Shown: positions 4,450 through 10,721 of the stretch, one piece after another | Position numbering within the stretch: position 1 is the stretch's first letter | Layout of the letters: each line of letters begins with the position of its first letter | Assembly: GCA_943354625.1 (NCBI GenBank) | Contig: CALRCS010000001.1 | Span: 1-24,512 of the forward strand | Length of the DNA stretch: 24,512 nucleotides | Direction of reading: 5' to 3' | From: Candidatus Nomurabacteria bacterium | Lineage (GTDB): Bacteria; Patescibacteriota; Minisyncoccia; Phycocordibacterales; PALSA-1337 | The notes under the pieces: generated by a model | The model's input: only the letters and a program-made list of their open reading frames with translations | Told to the model about the DNA's origin: nothing | The model's database searches: none | Program-made: the position numbers and the translations under genes

Positions 4450-6930
4450 CTATTTATTCACTCCATGACACTTTTTGTATTTCTTCCCAGATCCACAAGG
4501 GCATAAATCATTCCTACCAACCTCATCCTTTTTTGGAGCTTGTTGCACTGCTTTATCACCATCACCGCCACCGATTATCTGAGCTTGTTCGTGTACCTCT
4601 TTCAATTCCACTGCTTCAGGGGTAATAATTCCACCACCCACATGAGGTAAAAGATTTATTATTTGATTATTTATGGCAAGTTGCATTTCACGGAAAAGAC
4701 GAAGACCCTCTTTCTTATATTCTACCAATGGATCTCTTTGGCCATAAGCACGAAGATTCACACTTGAACGAGTATGATCCATCACTTCTAGATGTTCTAC
4801 CCAGAACATATCTATAGCTTGAAGCATAAGTTGACGAACTACTGTTAGAAAACGTTCTTTACCAAGTTGGGCTATTTTATTTTCGATTATTTTATCTAGA
4901 TCGGTATTTACTCCTACAACCTCTCTCATCTTTTCTTCCACTTCATCCAGAGTACCTAGTAGGATTTTTCTACGACGTTCATAAACAGTTTTTCTTTGGT
5001 GGTTTAGAATATCATCATATTCTAGAATATGTTTTCTAGAATCAAAGTTGAATCCTTCGATTTTTGACTGTGCACCCTCAAGAGATCTTGTGATTATACG
5101 ATTCTCAATTGCTTCGTCTTCTGCAACACCTAGTTTACCCATTAGGTTTTTTATAGTATCTGAAGCAAAAATTCTCATCAGTGAATCCTCAAGAGAAACA
5201 AAGAATTGTGTGGCACCTGGGTCACCCTGACGACCAGATCGTCCTCGAAGCTGATTGTCTATACGACGTGCTTCATGCCTCTCTGTTCCTAGAACAAAAA
5301 GTCCACCGACGGATTTTATTTCTTCATAAAGGGTGGGGGATCCTGGGTTTCCACCAAGCCTGATATCCACACCTCGTCCAGCCATGTTTGTTGCAATAGT
5401 TACAGCACCCCTTTTTCCTGCTTGAGCTATAATCTCTCCTTCGCGTTCGTGATTTTTTGCATTTAGAACTTCATGAGGTACTCCTTCGGCATGTAGGAAT
5501 TCTGAAAGAACTTCATTCTTTTCAATTGAAACTGTACCAATGAGGACTGGCTGGCCGGTTTTATTTAATTCTTTTACCTTTTTTGCAATTGCTTTATACT
5601 TACCAATTTCTGTTTGGAATATAAGATCGTTATTGTCCTTTCTTTGTTGGATTTTATTTGTCGGAATTATAATAGTTTCAAGTCCGTACACTTTATAGAA
5701 TTCTTCACTTGATGTTGAAGCTGTACCGGTCATACCTGAAAGCTTTTTATATAATCTAAAGTAATTTTGGAAGGTAATAGAAGCAAAAGTTCTAGACTCC
5801 TTTTGTACAGTCACACCTTCTTTTGCTTCAATAGCCTGATGGAGACCCTCAGACCAACGACGTCCTGGCTGAAGTCTACCTGTGAATGTATCAACGATTA
5901 CTACACTGTCCTCTTTGATAACATACTCAGTGTTTAGATTGAATAAAGCCTTTGCCTTTACTGCGGTTTCTAGGTGGTGTACGTACTTGATTCCTTTTTC
6001 TGTATAAATATTTTCTACACCAAGCTTTTTTTCAGCTTTTTCTATGCCTTTATCTGTAAGAGCTATTGTTTTTTGTTTTTCATCTACGGTATAATCTTCA
6101 TCTTTTATAAAATCTCTTACCATTACTGCAAATATTTGATATAGATTTTCGGAATCTGTTGTGGGCGATGAAATAATAAGAGGGGTACGAGCTTCATCTA
6201 TCAAGATAGAGTCAATCTCGTCGACGATAGCGTAATTGAACTCTCTTTGGCGAAGTGAAGAAGCTTCATATTCTAGATTGTCTCGCAAATAGTCAAAGCC
6301 AAATTCATTGTTTGTTCCATAAGTTATATCTGCCATATAAGCTTCATGACGGGTGACTGGACGTAGATATTCATGAACTACTTTAAATGAACCTAGCTGA
6401 TCACGTTCCGCATCTAGAGACTCCACATGACTAGGGTCATATATAAAGGAACTTTCATGATTTATAACTCCAGTTGTAAGACCTAGGAAATTGTAGATCT
6501 GACCCATCCATACAGCGTCTCGGCGAGAGAGGTAGTCATTTACGGTCACAACATGCACTCCTTTTCCTGTAAGCCCATTTAGATACGCTGGAAGGGTGGC
6601 TACCAGTGTCTTACCTTCTCCTGTACGCATTTCTGCAATACATCCACTATTTAGAATAGCTCCACCTGTTATCTGAACATCAAAATGTCTTTGTTTCAAT
6701 ACTCTTTTTGAGGACTCTCGAACTACAGCAAAAGCTTCTGGGAGTATAGAATCTAGCGTTTGACCCTTTGAAATACGGTCTTTGAACTCTAGTGTCTTAG
6801 CGCGAAGAGCCTCATCTGAAAGGGCAGAAATCGCAGGCTCAAAAGCATTAACGAGGCCTATTATAGGCTCGTATTTCTTAAGTAGTTTCTTATTTGGGTC
6901 TCCAAAGATGTTTTTTATTGAGAATGCCAT
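4450..6930 (-). CDS. secA: Preprotein translocase subunit SecA (probable start ATG 6930; ORF track starts at GTG 6954)
   Basis: AEMRTGEGKTL, VTVNDYLSRRD, VDEIDSILIDEARTPLIIS, IATNMAGRGVDI, RRIDNQLRGRSGRQGDPG, C-terminal SEC-C CPCGSGKKYKKCHG. Confidence 0.97.
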   Translation of the reverse strand: MAFSIKNIFGDPNKKLLKKYEPIIGLVNAFEPAISALSDEALRAKTLEFKDRISKGQTLDSILPEAFAVVRESSKRVLKQRHFDVQITGGAILNSGCIAEMRTGEGKTLVATLPAYLNGLTGKGVHVVTVNDYLSRRDAVWMGQIYNFLGLTTGVINHESSFIYDPSHVESLDAERDQLGSFKVVHEYLRPVTRHEAYMADITYGTNNEFGFDYLRDNLEYEASSLRQREFNYAIVDEIDSILIDEARTPLIISSPTTDSENLYQIFAVMVRDFIKDEDYTVDEKQKTIALTDKGIEKAEKKLGVENIYTEKGIKYVHHLETAVKAKALFNLNTEYVIKEDSVVIVDTFTGRLQPGRRWSEGLHQAIEAKEGVTVQKESRTFASITFQNYFRLYKKLSGMTGTASTSSEEFYKVYGLETIIIPTNKIQQRKDNNDLIFQTEIGKYKAIAKKVKELNKTGQPVLIGTVSIEKNEVLSEFLHAEGVPHEVLNAKNHEREGEIIAQAGKRGAVTIATNMAGRGVDIRLGGNPGSPTLYEEIKSVGGLFVLGTERHEARRIDNQLRGRSGRQGDPGATQFFVSLEDSLMRIFASDTIKNLMGKLGVAEDEAIENRIITRSLEGAQSKIEGFNFDSRKHILEYDDILNHQRKTVYERRRKILLGTLDEVEEKMREVVGVNTDLDKIIENKIAQLGKERFLTVVRQLMLQAIDMFWVEHLEVMDHTRSSVNLRAYGQRDPLVEYKKEGLRLFREMQLAINNQIINLLPHVGGGIITPEAVELKEVHEQAQIIGGGDGDKAVQQAPKKDEVGRNDLCPCGSGKKYKKCHGVNK

Positions 6931-6984
6931 TTGAGTGCGTGGCGAGTACGCCACATGAGTGTTCGACTCTACGAGTCTCCCTCA

Positions 6985-8004
6985 CTATATCACATATTCC
7001 ACTTCAGGTTCAATCTCTATTCCTGTTTTTTCATATACTCCATCTACCATTTTTTGTGCTAGGGCAATGACCTCAGCAGACGTTGCATTTCCCAGATTTA
7101 TAATAACTAATGCTTGATTTTTATATGTACCTACATTACCCTTTTTTACACCACGAAAACCGCAAAGATTGTCTAGAATCCAAGCTACAGGGATTTTTAC
7201 CTTTTTATCATTTAATGGGTGAACTATCATCTCTGGGTATTTTGTTGTAAGCTCTTTTGCTTTTGTTGCAGACACTATGACATTTTTGAAAAATGATCCT
7301 GCACTACCACAGTCGCGCAAATCTGGGAGTTTTTTCTTTCGAATTTCTATTATTGCATCACGTACCTGTTCTAGGTTTGGTTCCTTTATCTTTTTATATG
7401 TAAAATACTCTTTCAGGTCTTTATATTCGTAATTTAATTTTCCCTTTTTATTTAAAATAAAAGTAACAGAGAGTACTACGTATCTCCTTGGGTCTTTTTT
7501 GAAAATACTATTTCTATATGAAAATTTACAGACTTCATTGGAAAGATCCAAGTATTCATCCTTCAGAACATCCAATACATGCACTGTCTCTATCATGTCC
7601 TTCACTTCACTTCCATATGCTCCGATATTCTGCACGGGAGAAGCGCCAACTGTACCAGGAATATATGAAAGGTTTTCAAGACCATAAAATCCTTTTTCAA
7701 CTGTCTCCTTTACTAGGGTATCCCAATCCTCCCCAGAAGCAACCGTTACTTTTACGGTATTACCATCTTCCATATATGTAATTCCTTTCATTTCCATTTT
7801 TATAGCTATACCGGGAAAACCATCATCTGAAACAAGGATATTTGATCCTTTACCAAGAATGAAAAAGGGCAGTTTACTTTTTTTAGAAAAGTTGATTGCC
7901 TCAATCAATTCATCTTTATTTGTAACAATACAAAAAAACCGAGCGGGCCCGCCAATTTTAAATGTCGTATATTCCTTTAGGGATTTTTTCTTTTCTATAA
8001 TCAT
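6985..8004 (-). CDS. murB: UDP-N-acetylmuramate dehydrogenase MurB
   Basis: YTTFKIGGPA, ILGKGSNIL, GLENLSYIPGTVGASPVQNIGAYG, SYRNSIFK, GSAGSFFKN, LEPEV-like C-terminus. Confidence 0.96.
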   Translation of the reverse strand: MIIEKKKSLKEYTTFKIGGPARFFCIVTNKDELIEAINFSKKSKLPFFILGKGSNILVSDDGFPGIAIKMEMKGITYMEDGNTVKVTVASGEDWDTLVKETVEKGFYGLENLSYIPGTVGASPVQNIGAYGSEVKDMIETVHVLDVLKDEYLDLSNEVCKFSYRNSIFKKDPRRYVVLSVTFILNKKGKLNYEYKDLKEYFTYKKIKEPNLEQVRDAIIEIRKKKLPDLRDCGSAGSFFKNVIVSATKAKELTTKYPEMIVHPLNDKKVKIPVAWILDNLCGFRGVKKGNVGTYKNQALVIINLGNATSAEVIALAQKMVDGVYEKTGIEIEPEVEYVI

Positions 8005-8028
8005 ATTGGCGTTTGTTGTAAATTTTAG

Positions 8029-8120
8029 ATTGCGTCGAGTGTTGACGAACGGGTGAAAGCTCCAAATATAATGTCTAAATTAAAATGTGAGTACAGCCGT
8101 TCGTCAACACTTGAAACAAT
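8029..8120. repeat. Long inverted repeat/hairpin in the murB leader
   Basis: AGTGTTGACGAACGG (8038-8052) is the exact reverse complement of CCGTTCGTCAACACT (8097-8111); pairing extends imperfectly to 8029/8120. Confidence 0.85.
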
Positions 8121-8126
8121 ATGTTT

Positions 8127-8156
8127 ATTATAGCAAAAAGTCAATGAATTATACAA
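8127..8156 (-). promoter_or_regulatory. Sigma70 promoter for murB(-secA)
   Basis: Minus strand TTGTAT-N18-TATAAT with extended TG (TGcTATAAT at 8135-8127); predicted +1 near 8120. Confidence 0.6.
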
Positions 8157-8164
8157 TTGTATAA
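8149..8164. promoter_or_regulatory. Perfect 16-bp palindrome, candidate operator between divergent murB and kinase promoters
   Basis: TTATACAATTGTATAA equals its own reverse complement. Confidence 0.55.
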
Positions 8165-8194
8165 AATGAGTCCTTTTTATGTTAGAATTAAATT

Positions 8195-9016
8195 GTGAAT
8201 TATCAAATAATAATAAATCAAAAAGAGGTCCTTTCTGGAGATATTTTTATTTTGACTCTGACAATTTTATTGGTTATAGCGTTGATTGTATATATATTAA
8301 GGACTATTTTTAAAAAACTAAGTGCTTATGAGGTTATGAAGTACGAATTCGTCACTATTATAGCTCATAAGTTTCGCACTCCACTTACTCAAATCAAATG
8401 GCTATTAGAAAGTATATTGTCAGACGAAGAGGATTCCTTTAAAAAAGAGAGTTTGCAGAATATTGGAAAATCAACGGAGACTTTGATAGGTCTTACCAAT
8501 GCTCTAGTTGAGCTTACAAATTCAGCAGATAATGTAAAATCCATATATAATTTTGAAAAAATTAATATTTGTGAAATGGTAAAAAAAGTTAGTGGTTTAT
8601 TGAGTGTGCATTTTCATGAAAAGAACATCTTTTTTGGTATAGAGTATTCTAGTCCAGAAATATATGTAAACGCTGATCATTCCAGAATGGAATTTGTGCT
8701 ACAGACTCTTTTTGAAAATAGTATAAATTACAGCCACACCGGAAGGAATGTCGATATCCAGGTTTTACAAGAAAAAAATAAAGTGATTATATCTGTAGTT
8801 GATTATGGTATCGGTATAGACCCCTCTGATCTTCCTAGAATCTTTTCAAAGTTTTTTCGTGCTAGTAATGCGCGAAATATGGATACAGAAGGTTTTGGTG
8901 TTGGATTGTATTTGGTAAAATCAGTAGTGAAAAGACATCATGGAACACTTGAAGTATTTTCTGATGGGATAGAGAAGGGGACAACTTTTGTTTTGACCTT
9001 GCCTATTTACAAATAG
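8195..9016 (+). CDS. Orphan single-TM sensor histidine kinase (HisKA + HATPase_c)
   Basis: H-box AHKFRTPLT, N-box LFENSINYS, G1 VVDYGIGI, F-box IFSKFFRA, G2 GFGVGLYLVK; TGtTAGAAT 6 nt before the GTG. Confidence 0.9.
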   Translation: MNYQIIINQKEVLSGDIFILTLTILLVIALIVYILRTIFKKLSAYEVMKYEFVTIIAHKFRTPLTQIKWLLESILSDEEDSFKKESLQNIGKSTETLIGLTNALVELTNSADNVKSIYNFEKINICEMVKKVSGLLSVHFHEKNIFFGIEYSSPEIYVNADHSRMEFVLQTLFENSINYSHTGRNVDIQVLQEKNKVIISVVDYGIGIDPSDLPRIFSKFFRASNARNMDTEGFGVGLYLVKSVVKRHHGTLEVFSDGIEKGTTFVLTLPIYK

Positions 9017-9049
9017 AAAAAAATTCAAATTTTTCAACCTGACTAATAG

Positions 9050-9137
9050 AAACACAAAATCCTGCCGAGGCAGGACCTTATGTAGACATTTTATATTGAA
9101 GTACTCCATCTAGGCTTACGCCTTTTCGTACTCACAC
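9050..9137 (-). ncRNA. Candidate ~85-90 nt small RNA (unassigned family)
   Basis: TTGCAA-N17-TATAAT promoter; two-stem 5' domain with a GUAA tetraloop; 3' GC hairpin followed by a U-rich tract; no real ORF. Confidence 0.45.
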
Positions 9138-9143
9138 AGGTAT

Positions 9144-9195
9144 ATTATAACTTAGGATATTTTTTGTTGCAAGAAGGGAAGAATTAAGGTATTTT
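9144..9195. promoter_or_regulatory. Divergent sigma70 promoters sharing one palindromic -35 (TTGCAA 9167-9172)
   Basis: Minus: TTGCAA-17-TATAAT (9149-9144). Plus: TTGCAA-17-TATTTT (9190-9195), upstream of the tRNA. Confidence 0.55.
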
Positions 9196-9205
9196 ATAGA
9201 TACAT

Positions 9206-9279
9206 TGCCGGATCGTATAAAGGTAGTACGTCGCTCTCTGAAAGCGAAAATTTTGGTTCGATTCCAAGTCCGGCAGCCA
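9206..9279 (+). tRNA. tRNA-Gln (anticodon CTG)
   Basis: Acceptor TGCCGGA/TCCGGCA, anticodon arm TCGCT-CTCTGAA-AGCGA, T arm TTTGG-TTCGATT-CCAAG, discriminator G, encoded CCA 9277-9279. Confidence 0.95.
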
Positions 9280-9290
9280 AAATAATTTAT

Positions 9291-9847
9291 ATGAAAATCA
9301 CTTTTATTACAGGTAATATTGGAAAAGTAAATGAGGTCAGCCGATACTTAGGAATTGAAGTTGATCACCAGAAACTTGACCTCGGGAGATTCAGTCGCTT
9401 GACTTAGAAGATGTTGTTAAGGACAAAGCTGCTCGAGCCTTCGAAAAAGTTGGCGGACCAGTCTTGGTAGAAGATGTTTCTTTTGTCTTCCATGCCCTTG
9501 GCAAGTTACCCGGACCTTTTATTAAATGGTTTTTATCACAATTAAAAAATGAAGGCCTTTGCAAGCTTGTTGATGGAAAAGATCGTGGTTGTACCGCAAC
9601 AGTATGTTATGGATATCATAATGGGAAAACGATTCATTTGTTCAGTGGCTCAATGACAGGATCAGTTGTTTCCTCTCCAAGAGGAAATAATAGTTTCGGG
9701 TGGGCCCCAATATTTTTGCCGGATGGTTATGATAAAACATATGCCGAACTTTTAGACAAAGAACAAGCACCTATTTCCATGAGAAATATAGCGCTTGCGA
9801 ACCTGCGAAGGTTTCTTGTTTCTGATTCTGGCGGGCTAATCTTGTAA
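9291..9847 (+). pseudogene. rdgB: RdgB/HAM1-family non-canonical purine NTP pyrophosphatase with a 1-nt frameshift near 9384-9386
   Basis: Frame A: MKITFITGNIGKVNEVSRYLGIEVDHQKLDL, stop at 9405. Frame B from 9386: EIQSLDLEDVVKDKA...VLVEDVS...LPGPFIKWF...FGWAPIF...ISMR. Joined length is about 185 aa. Confidence 0.88.
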
Positions 9848-9980
9848 AAAGGTTCCAACTTCGTACCACACCTCCAGCCATTACCATCGAAATAGCATCG
9901 CTATTTGAGATGGGCATCTGTCCAGATATGGATCTAGGATTTAGGGTACCTCCTAATGTCAGTTATTCGACTAAAACCGC

Positions 9981-10009
9981 TTGCTTTCTTTACATCATTT
10001 GTATATACT
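9981..10009 (+). promoter_or_regulatory. Sigma70 promoter of the TA operon with an inverted repeat in the spacer
   Basis: TTGCTT-N17-TATACT, ATG 7 nt later; TACA-N5-TGTA at 9991-10003. Confidence 0.6.
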
Positions 10010-10016
10010 TTTTGGT

Positions 10017-10721
10017 ATGACCAACAAGTATATAAAAAAAATAAAAGAGTTTCGTATTGAAAAAGGACTTTCGCAAGAACAAGTGGCACAAGCAATTGGC
10101 GTATCTCGTCCAACGTATACTGCTATCGAGGCAGGAAAAAAACAAAATCTCGATCTCGATGAAGCACAGAAACTAGCTAATTTTTTTGGTATTAGCCTAG
10201 GCGAACTTATTACTGGAACAATTGAAAATGTGGAAAAGTATAAACAGATGATACTTTCGTATCTTCGAATGAATATTTCCAGTTCTAGGGGTGGAAAAGT
10301 TACGAAGACTAAACTTGCTAAACTTCTTTACCTTGCTGATTTCGCTTGGTTCTATGATCATTTGGAGAGTATGAGTGGCATGCAATACAAGAAGTTTGCC
10401 TATGGTCCAGTACCGGATACCTTCTTTCGAGTTCTCGATGAACTTGAAGGAGATGGAAAAATCAATATCGCAAGAATAAAAGAAGGCGAAAAAGATGTGT
10501 TTTTGATTAGTGAATCAGAAAATAATAAGAATGAAAAAATCACGACTATTTCCGGTGAAGAGCAGAAGTTGATGGAGAAGATAGCGAAGAAATGGAAAAA
10601 TAAGAACACGCAGGATATCGTGACTTTTACGCACAATCAATTGCCGTACACTATTTGTCGAGATAATGAGGTGATTCCTTATGAGCTTATAATTCAAGAA
10701 AACCCTGGAGATGTCTACTAG
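10017..10721 (+). CDS. XRE-family HTH + DUF4065 (Panacea/SocA-like) antitoxin
   Basis: HTH: RIEKGLSQEQVAQAIGVSRPTYTAIEAG. DUF4065 motifs: KLAKLLYLADF, YGPVP, FTHNQLPY...IPY. Probable start ATG 10017. Confidence 0.88.
   Translation: MTNKYIKKIKEFRIEKGLSQEQVAQAIGVSRPTYTAIEAGKKQNLDLDEAQKLANFFGISLGELITGTIENVEKYKQMILSYLRMNISSSRGGKVTKTKLAKLLYLADFAWFYDHLESMSGMQYKKFAYGPVPDTFFRVLDELEGDGKINIARIKEGEKDVFLISESENNKNEKITTISGEEQKLMEKIAKKWKNKNTQDIVTFTHNQLPYTICRDNEVIPYELIIQENPGDVY

Follow-up and report, generated by a model that had tools for sequence, protein, structure and literature searches.

The window analysed here, i.e., a 24,512-nt stretch of DNA from a Candidatus Nomurabacteria bacterium, almost certainly encodes a genuine and previously undescribed small RNA, which we call sRNA-1. 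Comparison of sequences indicates that this RNA very likely base-pairs with RNA-2, a large hairpin found in the 5′ leader of the murB-secA operon ~1 kb away. The two RNAs constitute a concrete and testable sRNA-target pair, which is kept across an order of bacteria and which presents multiple inter-molecular compensatory changes. Our literature search returned no regulatory small RNA or structured RNA motif described for CPR/Patescibacteria, and neither of the two RNAs was found described. The genome containing the window (644 kb, 92.6% complete) is referred to as G000; other G-numbers designate genomes of the genus, L-numbers designate loci or genomes of the genus or order and C-numbers designate contigs of G000.

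The sRNA-1 unit and its divergent neighbor present the following features:

9144..9172, minus strand: sRNA-1 promoter, with the −35 TTGCAA at 9172..9167, a 17-nt spacer and the −10 TATAAT at 9149..9144
9050..9137, minus strand: predicted sRNA-1 transcript of ~88 nt, whose 5′ end at 9137 is GUGUGAGUAC
9128..9137, minus strand: site A, the 5′-terminal GUGUGAGUAC (sRNA nucleotides 1-10), complementary to the RNA-2 loop segment GUACUCACAU
9099..9133, minus strand: 5′ hairpin predicted by RNAfold, with P1 GAGUAC/GUACUU, the internal loop GAAA/AGAUGGA and P2 AGGC-GUAA-GCCU
9083..9101, minus strand: site B, the linker CUUCAAUAUAAAAUGUCUA (sRNA nucleotides 37-55), complementary to the RNA-2 loop segment UAGACAUUAUAUUUGGAG
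9050..9083, minus strand: intrinsic terminator with a 14-bp stem, a CUCG loop and a U-rich tail
9206..9279, plus strand: tRNA-Gln(CUG), divergent from sRNA-1

A preliminary description of this DNA had proposed a complete promoter-to-terminator unit without a protein, divergent from tRNA-Gln, and every element that it describes is present in the sequence at the position given. The promoter TTGCAA-N17-TATAAT is present as stated on the minus strand; it matches 10/12 in our promoter scan and constitutes the top promoter-like site within 8000..10500. The 5′ end of sRNA-1 is located seven bases past the −10 TATAAT. RNAfold reproduced the proposed P1 helix and GNRA-capped P2 helix when applied to the minus strand of 9137..9050 (−31.6 kcal/mol, z = −4.57 relative to shuffles), and the fold of the plus strand was weaker (−20.0, z = −2.9). 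The terminator scan called a site on the minus strand (9083..9052) in which 14 pairs precede a U-rich tail, and the tRNA gene is indeed encoded on the opposite strand. Our covariance model of sRNA-1 (R2) matches 9049..9137 on the minus strand only. Beyond the sRNA-1 terminator, a 62-aa ORF (8921..9109) runs antisense to the kinase gene.

With the Rfam 15 covariance models, tRNA alone scored above the gathering threshold in the whole window. Between 8900 and 9500, the matches located on or beside sRNA-1 were OrzO-P (18.6 bits, its gathering score being 60), RF_site3 and MIR8024, and no credible match to sRNA-1 was obtained at E ≤ 10, in agreement with the earlier statement that it resembles no known family.

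The unit was then recovered in related genomes as a single-copy element of both the genus and the order. Using BLAST, we found sRNA-1 in a single copy in 42 of the 44 other genomes of the genus, and model R2 identified one full-length copy in 69 of the 151 sampled genomes of the order, distributed over many families. When the genus-level 3′ motif was used as a pattern to scan 185,579 species genomes, 46 matches were obtained, all of them in this genus; the wider spread of sRNA-1 and RNA-2 is visible with covariance models and was missed by the pattern scan. The length of sRNA-1 varies from 68 to 105 nt in relatives. When the genus sequences were aligned with their flanks, GUGAG at the 5′ end was invariant, and the −35 TTGCA and the −10 TATAAT/TATACT were found at a constant distance from this start in 42 genomes, with a spacer of variable sequence. 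The linker, ending AAUGUCUAC, and the terminator are conserved in the alignment, and sequences are unrelated outside the promoter and terminator limits. RNAalifold predicted 14 pairs in the terminator stem, five of which present compensatory double changes. Two segments of sRNA-1 are invariant: the 5′ GUGUGAGUAC and the linker ending AAUGUCUA.

We found no conserved ORF in either RNA, and reading frames shift with the indels of the stems. The mini-ORF AUG-UCU-ACA-UAA noted in the linker of sRNA-1 exists in the window, but its status as a coding sequence did not hold: the stop of this M-S-T-stop frame is lost in several relatives, with compensatory changes in the stem of the terminator. A type I toxin-antitoxin RNA was also rejected, as neither sRNA-1 nor RNA-2 presents a conserved small hydrophobic toxin ORF.

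The 5′ hairpin was predicted in 82 of the 82 homologues examined, with a length ranging from ~3 bp to more than 20 bp. Its asymmetric purine-rich internal loop, which lies beside a GNRA-capped helix in G000, had been described as kink-turn-like with possible tandem G-A pairs, and it could suggest that sRNA-1 is a protein-binding RNA built on a kink-turn and devoid of any base-pairing target. We consider this reading scarcely credible since it is contradicted by the alignment. The loop GAAA/AGAUGGA is confined to G000 and its closest relatives, and a kink-turn RNA, defined by a conserved 3-nt bulge and tandem sheared G-A pairs, was rejected on that ground. In most relatives the loop is replaced by the Watson-Crick pairs UAAUAA/UUGUUA and in others it is deleted; the tetraloop is unconserved, and the hairpin itself is nearly absent in G010, G021 and G042.

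We searched G000 for complements of the two invariant segments of sRNA-1 and identified GUACUCACA at 8094..8086 and UUAGACAUU at 8078..8070, both in the 5′ region of murB. This complementarity to the murB-secA leader had gone unnoticed in the preliminary description. The corresponding features are as follows:

8127..8135, minus strand: promoter of RNA-2 and murB, an extended −10 TGcTATAAT; RNA-2 begins just past this box
8024..8122, minus strand: RNA-2, the hairpin of the murB-secA 5′ leader, ~1 kb from sRNA-1
8110..8097 with 8052..8039, minus strand: stem of RNA-2, in which GUGUUGACGAACGG pairs with CCGUUCGUCAACAC and closes a 44-nt loop
8085..8094, minus strand: site A′, the loop segment GUACUCACAU, invariant in the genus
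8060..8077, minus strand: site B′, the loop segment UAGACAUUAUAUUUGGAG, containing an invariant SD-like GGAG
6985..8004, minus strand: murB (339 aa), the first gene past RNA-2, with the Pfam domains FAD_binding_4 and MurB_C
4450..6954, minus strand: secA (834 aa), 31 nt past murB, with the Pfam domains SecA_DEAD, SecA_PP_bind, SecA_SW and SEC-C

RNA-2 is present in 43 of the 44 genomes of the genus, and its covariance model (R1) identified one full-length copy in 80 of the 151 sampled genomes of the order; in the class outside this order, weak matches were found in one further family only. Nine pairs of its stem present compensatory changes and its loop is near-invariant in the genus, where the upstream TGnTAnAAT is conserved as well. 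The energy of the hairpin is ~−35 kcal/mol. The search against Rfam assigned RNA-2 to no family; its top match, MIR397 (29.7 against a gathering score of 55), reflects a generic long hairpin. In at least 12 genomes of the genus, the AUG of murB immediately follows the basal helix of RNA-2.

At the scale of the order, ten loci were inspected. RNA-2 precedes murB in seven of them, and the distance from RNA-2 to the start of murB varies from −4 to 189 nt across the order. In the other three loci, murB is missing, RNA-2 ends in a terminator of its own and ~500 nt of AT-rich DNA separate it from secA, with the TPR gene and sRNA-1 located upstream as elsewhere. RNA-2 possesses its own promoter everywhere examined. 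On the basis of these sequences, RNA-2 is not always a leader and looks like a free-standing RNA in three of the ten loci. The AT-rich spacer carries TTATCCACA boxes in two of the three loci without murB: in L142 and L146, the sequence between RNA-2 and secA presents perfect DnaA-box-like motifs of this type, which suggests that a replication origin may be located beside the RNA pair.

Both invariant segments of sRNA-1 map to the invariant 44-nt loop of RNA-2, which would be covered almost entirely by the two contacts. In a genome-wide duplex scan of G000, the murB leader ranked second among ~85,000 scanned windows once the antisense strand of the sRNA-1 gene itself was excluded, at −26.9 kcal/mol where the mean was −11.4 (sd 2.7). 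The site B duplex of G000 reached −14.8 kcal/mol with RNAduplex compared to −5.8 ± 2.2 for shuffled sequences. This duplex exceeded shuffles in 42 of the 42 genomes of the genus, with energies similar to or stronger than that of G000, and the site A duplex did so in 40 of 42. Site B is extended in many relatives by the sRNA UGUUAG and the loop CUAACA(C), and the short-form sRNAs of G010, G042, G046 and G047 present up to ~23 contiguous pairs at this site.

The two sites occur in the same 5′-to-3′ order on sRNA-1 and on RNA-2. This order is incompatible with RNA-2 being a reverse complement of the sRNA gene, and it requires a complex made of separate helices that meet at a junction. An antisense origin or an inverted duplication was accordingly rejected as the source of complementarity, since the blocks are in the same order and the pairs are matched even on separate contigs. 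Parts of sites A and B are paired together in the free sRNA-1 hairpin, such that binding would imply strand exchange. RNAcofold of sRNA-1 with the leader indicated no net gain unless the stem melts, a method that cannot represent binding of the loop with the stem intact.

Our computations on these sequences show that sRNA-1 and RNA-2 have co-evolved, staying complementary. Within the genus, the sRNA AUGUUUAC is associated with the leader UAAACAU in six of six genomes, and all others present AUGUCUAC with UAGACAU. In G021 and G042, the leader has changed from CUAACAC to CUCGCAC and the sRNA from GUGUUAG to GUGCGG. We conducted the same comparison at the order level with 40 sRNA-1/RNA-2 pairs from genomes of different families. 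The AAUGUCU core of site B in the sRNA covaries with AGACAUU in RNA-2, and this 7-nt core was fully complementary in 37 of the 40 cognate pairs against 14% of the swapped pairs with different variants. Four compensated variants were observed at site B: AAUGUAU/AUACAUU (three genomes), AAAGUCU/AGACUUU, AAUGUAA/UUACAUU (three genomes) and AAUGCCU/AGGCAUU. Site A presented three: AUGAGUGC/GCACUCAU (two genomes), GUGAGCGU/GCGCUCAC and GUAAGUGC/GCACUUAC. The energy of cognate duplexes was −39.6 kcal/mol compared to −34.1 kcal/mol for swapped duplexes and none of 10,000 permutations reached the observed value; this energy test is possibly inflated by shared GC content, a weakness that does not affect the position-specific changes. 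Two of the properties by which trans base-pairing sRNAs are recognized, besides a regulatory effect on the target, are found here: a predicted independent non-coding unit, and complementarity to a target RNA encoded elsewhere that is kept by compensatory changes.

The pairing with sRNA-1 largely accounts for the conservation of the RNA-2 loop. However, the segment UUUGGAGCU of RNA-2 is invariant beyond pairing needs, and the GGAG of the loop is not always paired with the sRNA (e.g., in L154), which hints at an extra constraint.

We clustered the ORFs flanking 42 sRNA-1 loci of the genus. The most common order was a Wzy_C/TPR membrane-protein gene, sRNA-1 and murB; in 29 of the 42 loci, murB was found downstream of sRNA-1 on the same strand in the order sRNA-1, RNA-2, murB. 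The upstream Wzy_C/TPR gene ends 17-52 nt before the +1 of sRNA-1, which indicates that the promoter lies inside this gene and that the terminator is shared. In the most common layout, a distance of 50-150 nt separates sRNA-1 from RNA-2, which follows it on the same strand, and the promoter of RNA-2 overlaps the terminator of the sRNA. At least 40 genomes of the order carry the two RNAs side by side, nearly always 50-600 nt apart, and in one genome they are divergent. The downstream gene is secA even where murB is missing, and the constant neighborhood thus consists of the TPR gene, sRNA-1, RNA-2, an optional murB and secA. In G000, the sRNA-1 unit has moved and is found beside tRNA-Gln, a neighbor common to just three other genomes, with no upstream coding gene on its strand. 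The order along the minus strand of the window is sRNA-1 (9137..9050), a kinase gene on the opposite strand (8195..9016), murB (8004..6985) and secA (6954..4450).

The most common layout might suggest that transcription reads through the terminator and that sRNA-1 is the upstream portion of a long murB leader, similar to a riboswitch or an attenuator, rather than a separate sRNA. We regard this as highly improbable. The histidine-kinase gene separates the two RNAs on the opposite strand in G000 and in five other genomes, and the gene order of G000 contradicts a cis reading for this genome. In addition, sRNA-1 and RNA-2 are located on separate contigs in several genomes of the genus, and both elements are intact with their own promoters in all separated cases, including the divergent one. 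Their location on separate contigs indicates that the interaction must be capable of operating in trans. Regarding a role of RNA-2 as a riboswitch or cis-attenuator, murB is found downstream at seven of the ten inspected loci of the order and RNA-2 ends with its own terminator at the other three.

Several observations concern the surroundings of sRNA-1 in the window. The histidine kinase at 8195-9016 (plus strand, 273 aa) presents HisKA and HATPase_c with no other Pfam domain detected, and no adjacent response regulator was found. In sister genomes, this kinase or an OmpR-type regulator occupies the slot between sRNA-1 and RNA-2 on the opposite strand, and the kinase is a candidate regulator of the module. 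The −35 hexamer TTGCAA (9167-9172) is its own reverse complement and is followed on the plus strand by 17 nt, TATTTT, ~9 nt and the first base of tRNA-Gln, which suggests that the hexamer may be common to both divergent promoters. Past tRNA-Gln, a gene for a Ham1/RdgB-type NTP pyrophosphatase (9291-9847, plus strand) looks frameshifted: a 38-aa ORF (9291..9407) resembles the N-terminus and a 127-aa ORF (9464..9847) corresponds to positions 63-185 of the Ham1p_like profile. This gene could be a pseudogene or the product of an assembly error.

Taken as a whole, sRNA-1 is probably a trans-acting partner RNA that controls murB-secA post-transcriptionally through its leader. RNA-2 constitutes the 5′ UTR of murB-secA in the genus, which makes control of this operon the most economical function. 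According to this model, sRNA-1 would be produced as its own transcript and would pair in trans with the apical 44-nt loop of RNA-2, its 5′ end GUGUGAGUAC contacting GUACUCACAU at site A and its single-stranded linker CUUCAAUAUAAAAUGUCUA contacting UAGACAUUAUAUUUGGAG at site B. Pairing would then alter the translation and/or the stability of the murB-secA mRNA. In the version that we prefer, sRNA-1 would mask the invariant GGAG segment exposed in the loop, and the long sRNA-1/RNA-2 duplex could be cut by RNase III, which would result in repression, the start region of the mRNA being located at the base of a hairpin of ~−35 kcal/mol. We infer repression as the favored outcome, and an effect of opposite sign is possible. 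The variable distance between RNA-2 and murB indicates that the ribosome binding site is not sequestered in every case, and the permuted topology that two helices would adopt inside a closed loop counts against the leader model.

Such a mechanism would resemble several known systems. In E. coli, the sRNA IstR-1 blocks a ribosome standby site in the structured 5′ UTR of tisB and triggers cleavage by RNase III. Here too, a trans RNA would act on an exposed single-stranded segment far upstream of an occluded start and form a long duplex suitable as an RNase III substrate. In contrast to IstR-1/tisB, no toxin is involved and the target is the housekeeping operon murB-secA; moreover, two contacts are made in one large hairpin loop, there is no sequence or Rfam relationship, and the standby role of the loop GGAG is conjectural. 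The sRNAs GlmZ (on glmS) and DsrA and RprA (on rpoS) remodel an inhibitory hairpin in the 5′ UTR by pairing with the strand of the stem that hides the ribosome binding site, and glmS, like murB, supplies the synthesis of cell-wall precursors. These cases share with ours an sRNA acting on a long leader hairpin whose base lies beside the start codon, but sRNA-1 pairs with the loop, such that opening of the stem is not implied. CPR bacteria are not known to possess Hfq or RapZ partners.

Other comparisons concern the geometry of the complex. In CopA/CopT, RNAI/RNAII and hok/sok, loop-loop kissing matures into a multi-helix junction between RNAs that are cis-encoded and perfectly antisense. As in these pairs, sRNA-1 and RNA-2 are structured RNAs with complementary sites in loops, whose hairpins would partly unfold and exchange strands. 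Unlike them, they are encoded by separate genes and their complementary blocks are in the same order, which is impossible for a simple antisense. T-box leaders are also contacted by a structured trans RNA, the tRNA, at two separated sites in the same order; this analogy is limited to topology, as we identified no tRNA, specifier codon or antiterminator/terminator switch for sRNA-1/RNA-2. Finally, sRNAs of the DapZ and MicL type possess their own promoter in the 3′ end of an upstream gene, which is similar to the most common layout of sRNA-1, with a promoter inside the Wzy_C/TPR gene and a shared terminator, whereas the unit of G000 has been displaced beside tRNA-Gln.

The target operon encodes a committed step of peptidoglycan synthesis (murB) and the Sec motor (secA). 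What makes the pair unusual is its architecture, in which two same-order contacts would span nearly all of a 44-nt loop, and the inheritance of its two genes as one module. Should the effect on murB-secA be confirmed, this would represent RNA-based control of the envelope in organisms with ~0.6-Mb genomes and would provide two new RNA families for the annotation of CPR genomes.

Alternatively, sRNA-1 and RNA-2 might each supply one half of a bipartite functional RNA (or RNA-protein particle) with a role other than the regulation of murB, in which case the adjacency to murB and secA would be mere synteny. Both RNAs are about equally conserved over the order and nearly always adjacent, RNA-2 carries its own promoter everywhere and its own terminator at three of the ten loci, UUUGGAGCU is invariant past the pairing requirement, and coverage of nearly the whole loop by the partner would yield a junction-like complex. 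Against this, RNA-2 passes straight into the AUG of murB in the genus with no terminator, neither RNA belongs to an Rfam family, the SRP-RNA version fails because Ffh and FtsY are undetectable, and a tmRNA is found elsewhere in the genome. We judge a bipartite RNA or particle of this kind rather unlikely. The more specific proposal of an obligate two-piece complex beside secA, kept as a conserved module of one Paceibacteria order, with a junction-like structure exposing the invariant UUUGGAGCU and a function beyond leader control, appears distinctly unlikely on the same sequences; for example, such a complex could associate with the ribosome or with SecA in a lineage without detectable SRP components.

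Two known identities were considered along these lines. A two-piece tmRNA was rejected as a normal tmRNA is encoded on contig C40 of G000. A divergent SRP (4.5S) RNA was also rejected for RNA-2 because the Ffh/FtsY domains and the DTAGR motif are missing too and no helix-8 motifs are present. This identity had been considered because the SRP RNA model RF00169 matched nothing in G000, in 26 genomes of the genus or in 151 genomes of the order. Regular expressions for helix-8 motifs (GNAR tetraloop, AGCA/GGA loops) returned no match. The SRP_SPB domain was detected in none of 26 genomes of the genus. For the SRP54 GTPase domain, the 151 genomes of the order yielded only P-loop fragments and no genuine domain, and no match was obtained at E ≤ 1e-10 in 151 genomes of the class and 121 genomes of the phylum. 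The motifs DTAGR, TKxDG and DxxRxAA are absent from every frame of G000. Either Ffh, FtsY and 4.5S RNA have really been lost over a very broad range, or the sensitivity of these searches, which were conducted without a CPR positive control, is limiting in this phylum.

It is very unlikely, in our view, that one RNA of the pair acts as a sponge or decoy for the other, for instance with the RNA-2 loop titrating an sRNA-1 that would in reality target other mRNAs: we found no further conserved target, and the co-variation is specific to the sRNA-1/RNA-2 pair. This possibility is nevertheless favored by a second sRNA-1-like element that also complements the RNA-2 loop in ~10 genomes of the genus, which makes RNA-2 look like a hub, and by a site near 7915 on contig C17 of G000 that scored −27.1 against −26.9 for the leader, driven by site A (−18.1).

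The second element (L190-L198, in ~10 genomes of the genus and not in G000) lies immediately ahead of the terminator of a small membrane-protein gene, within its 3′ UTR. The complementarity of this element covers the 3′ half of the loop of RNA-2 and extends to CACCCGUUC, a strand of the stem, which suggests that the element could open the stem of RNA-2. The site on contig C17 (~7876-7935, plus strand) contains GUACUCACAC, a perfect 10-nt complement to the 5′ end of sRNA-1.
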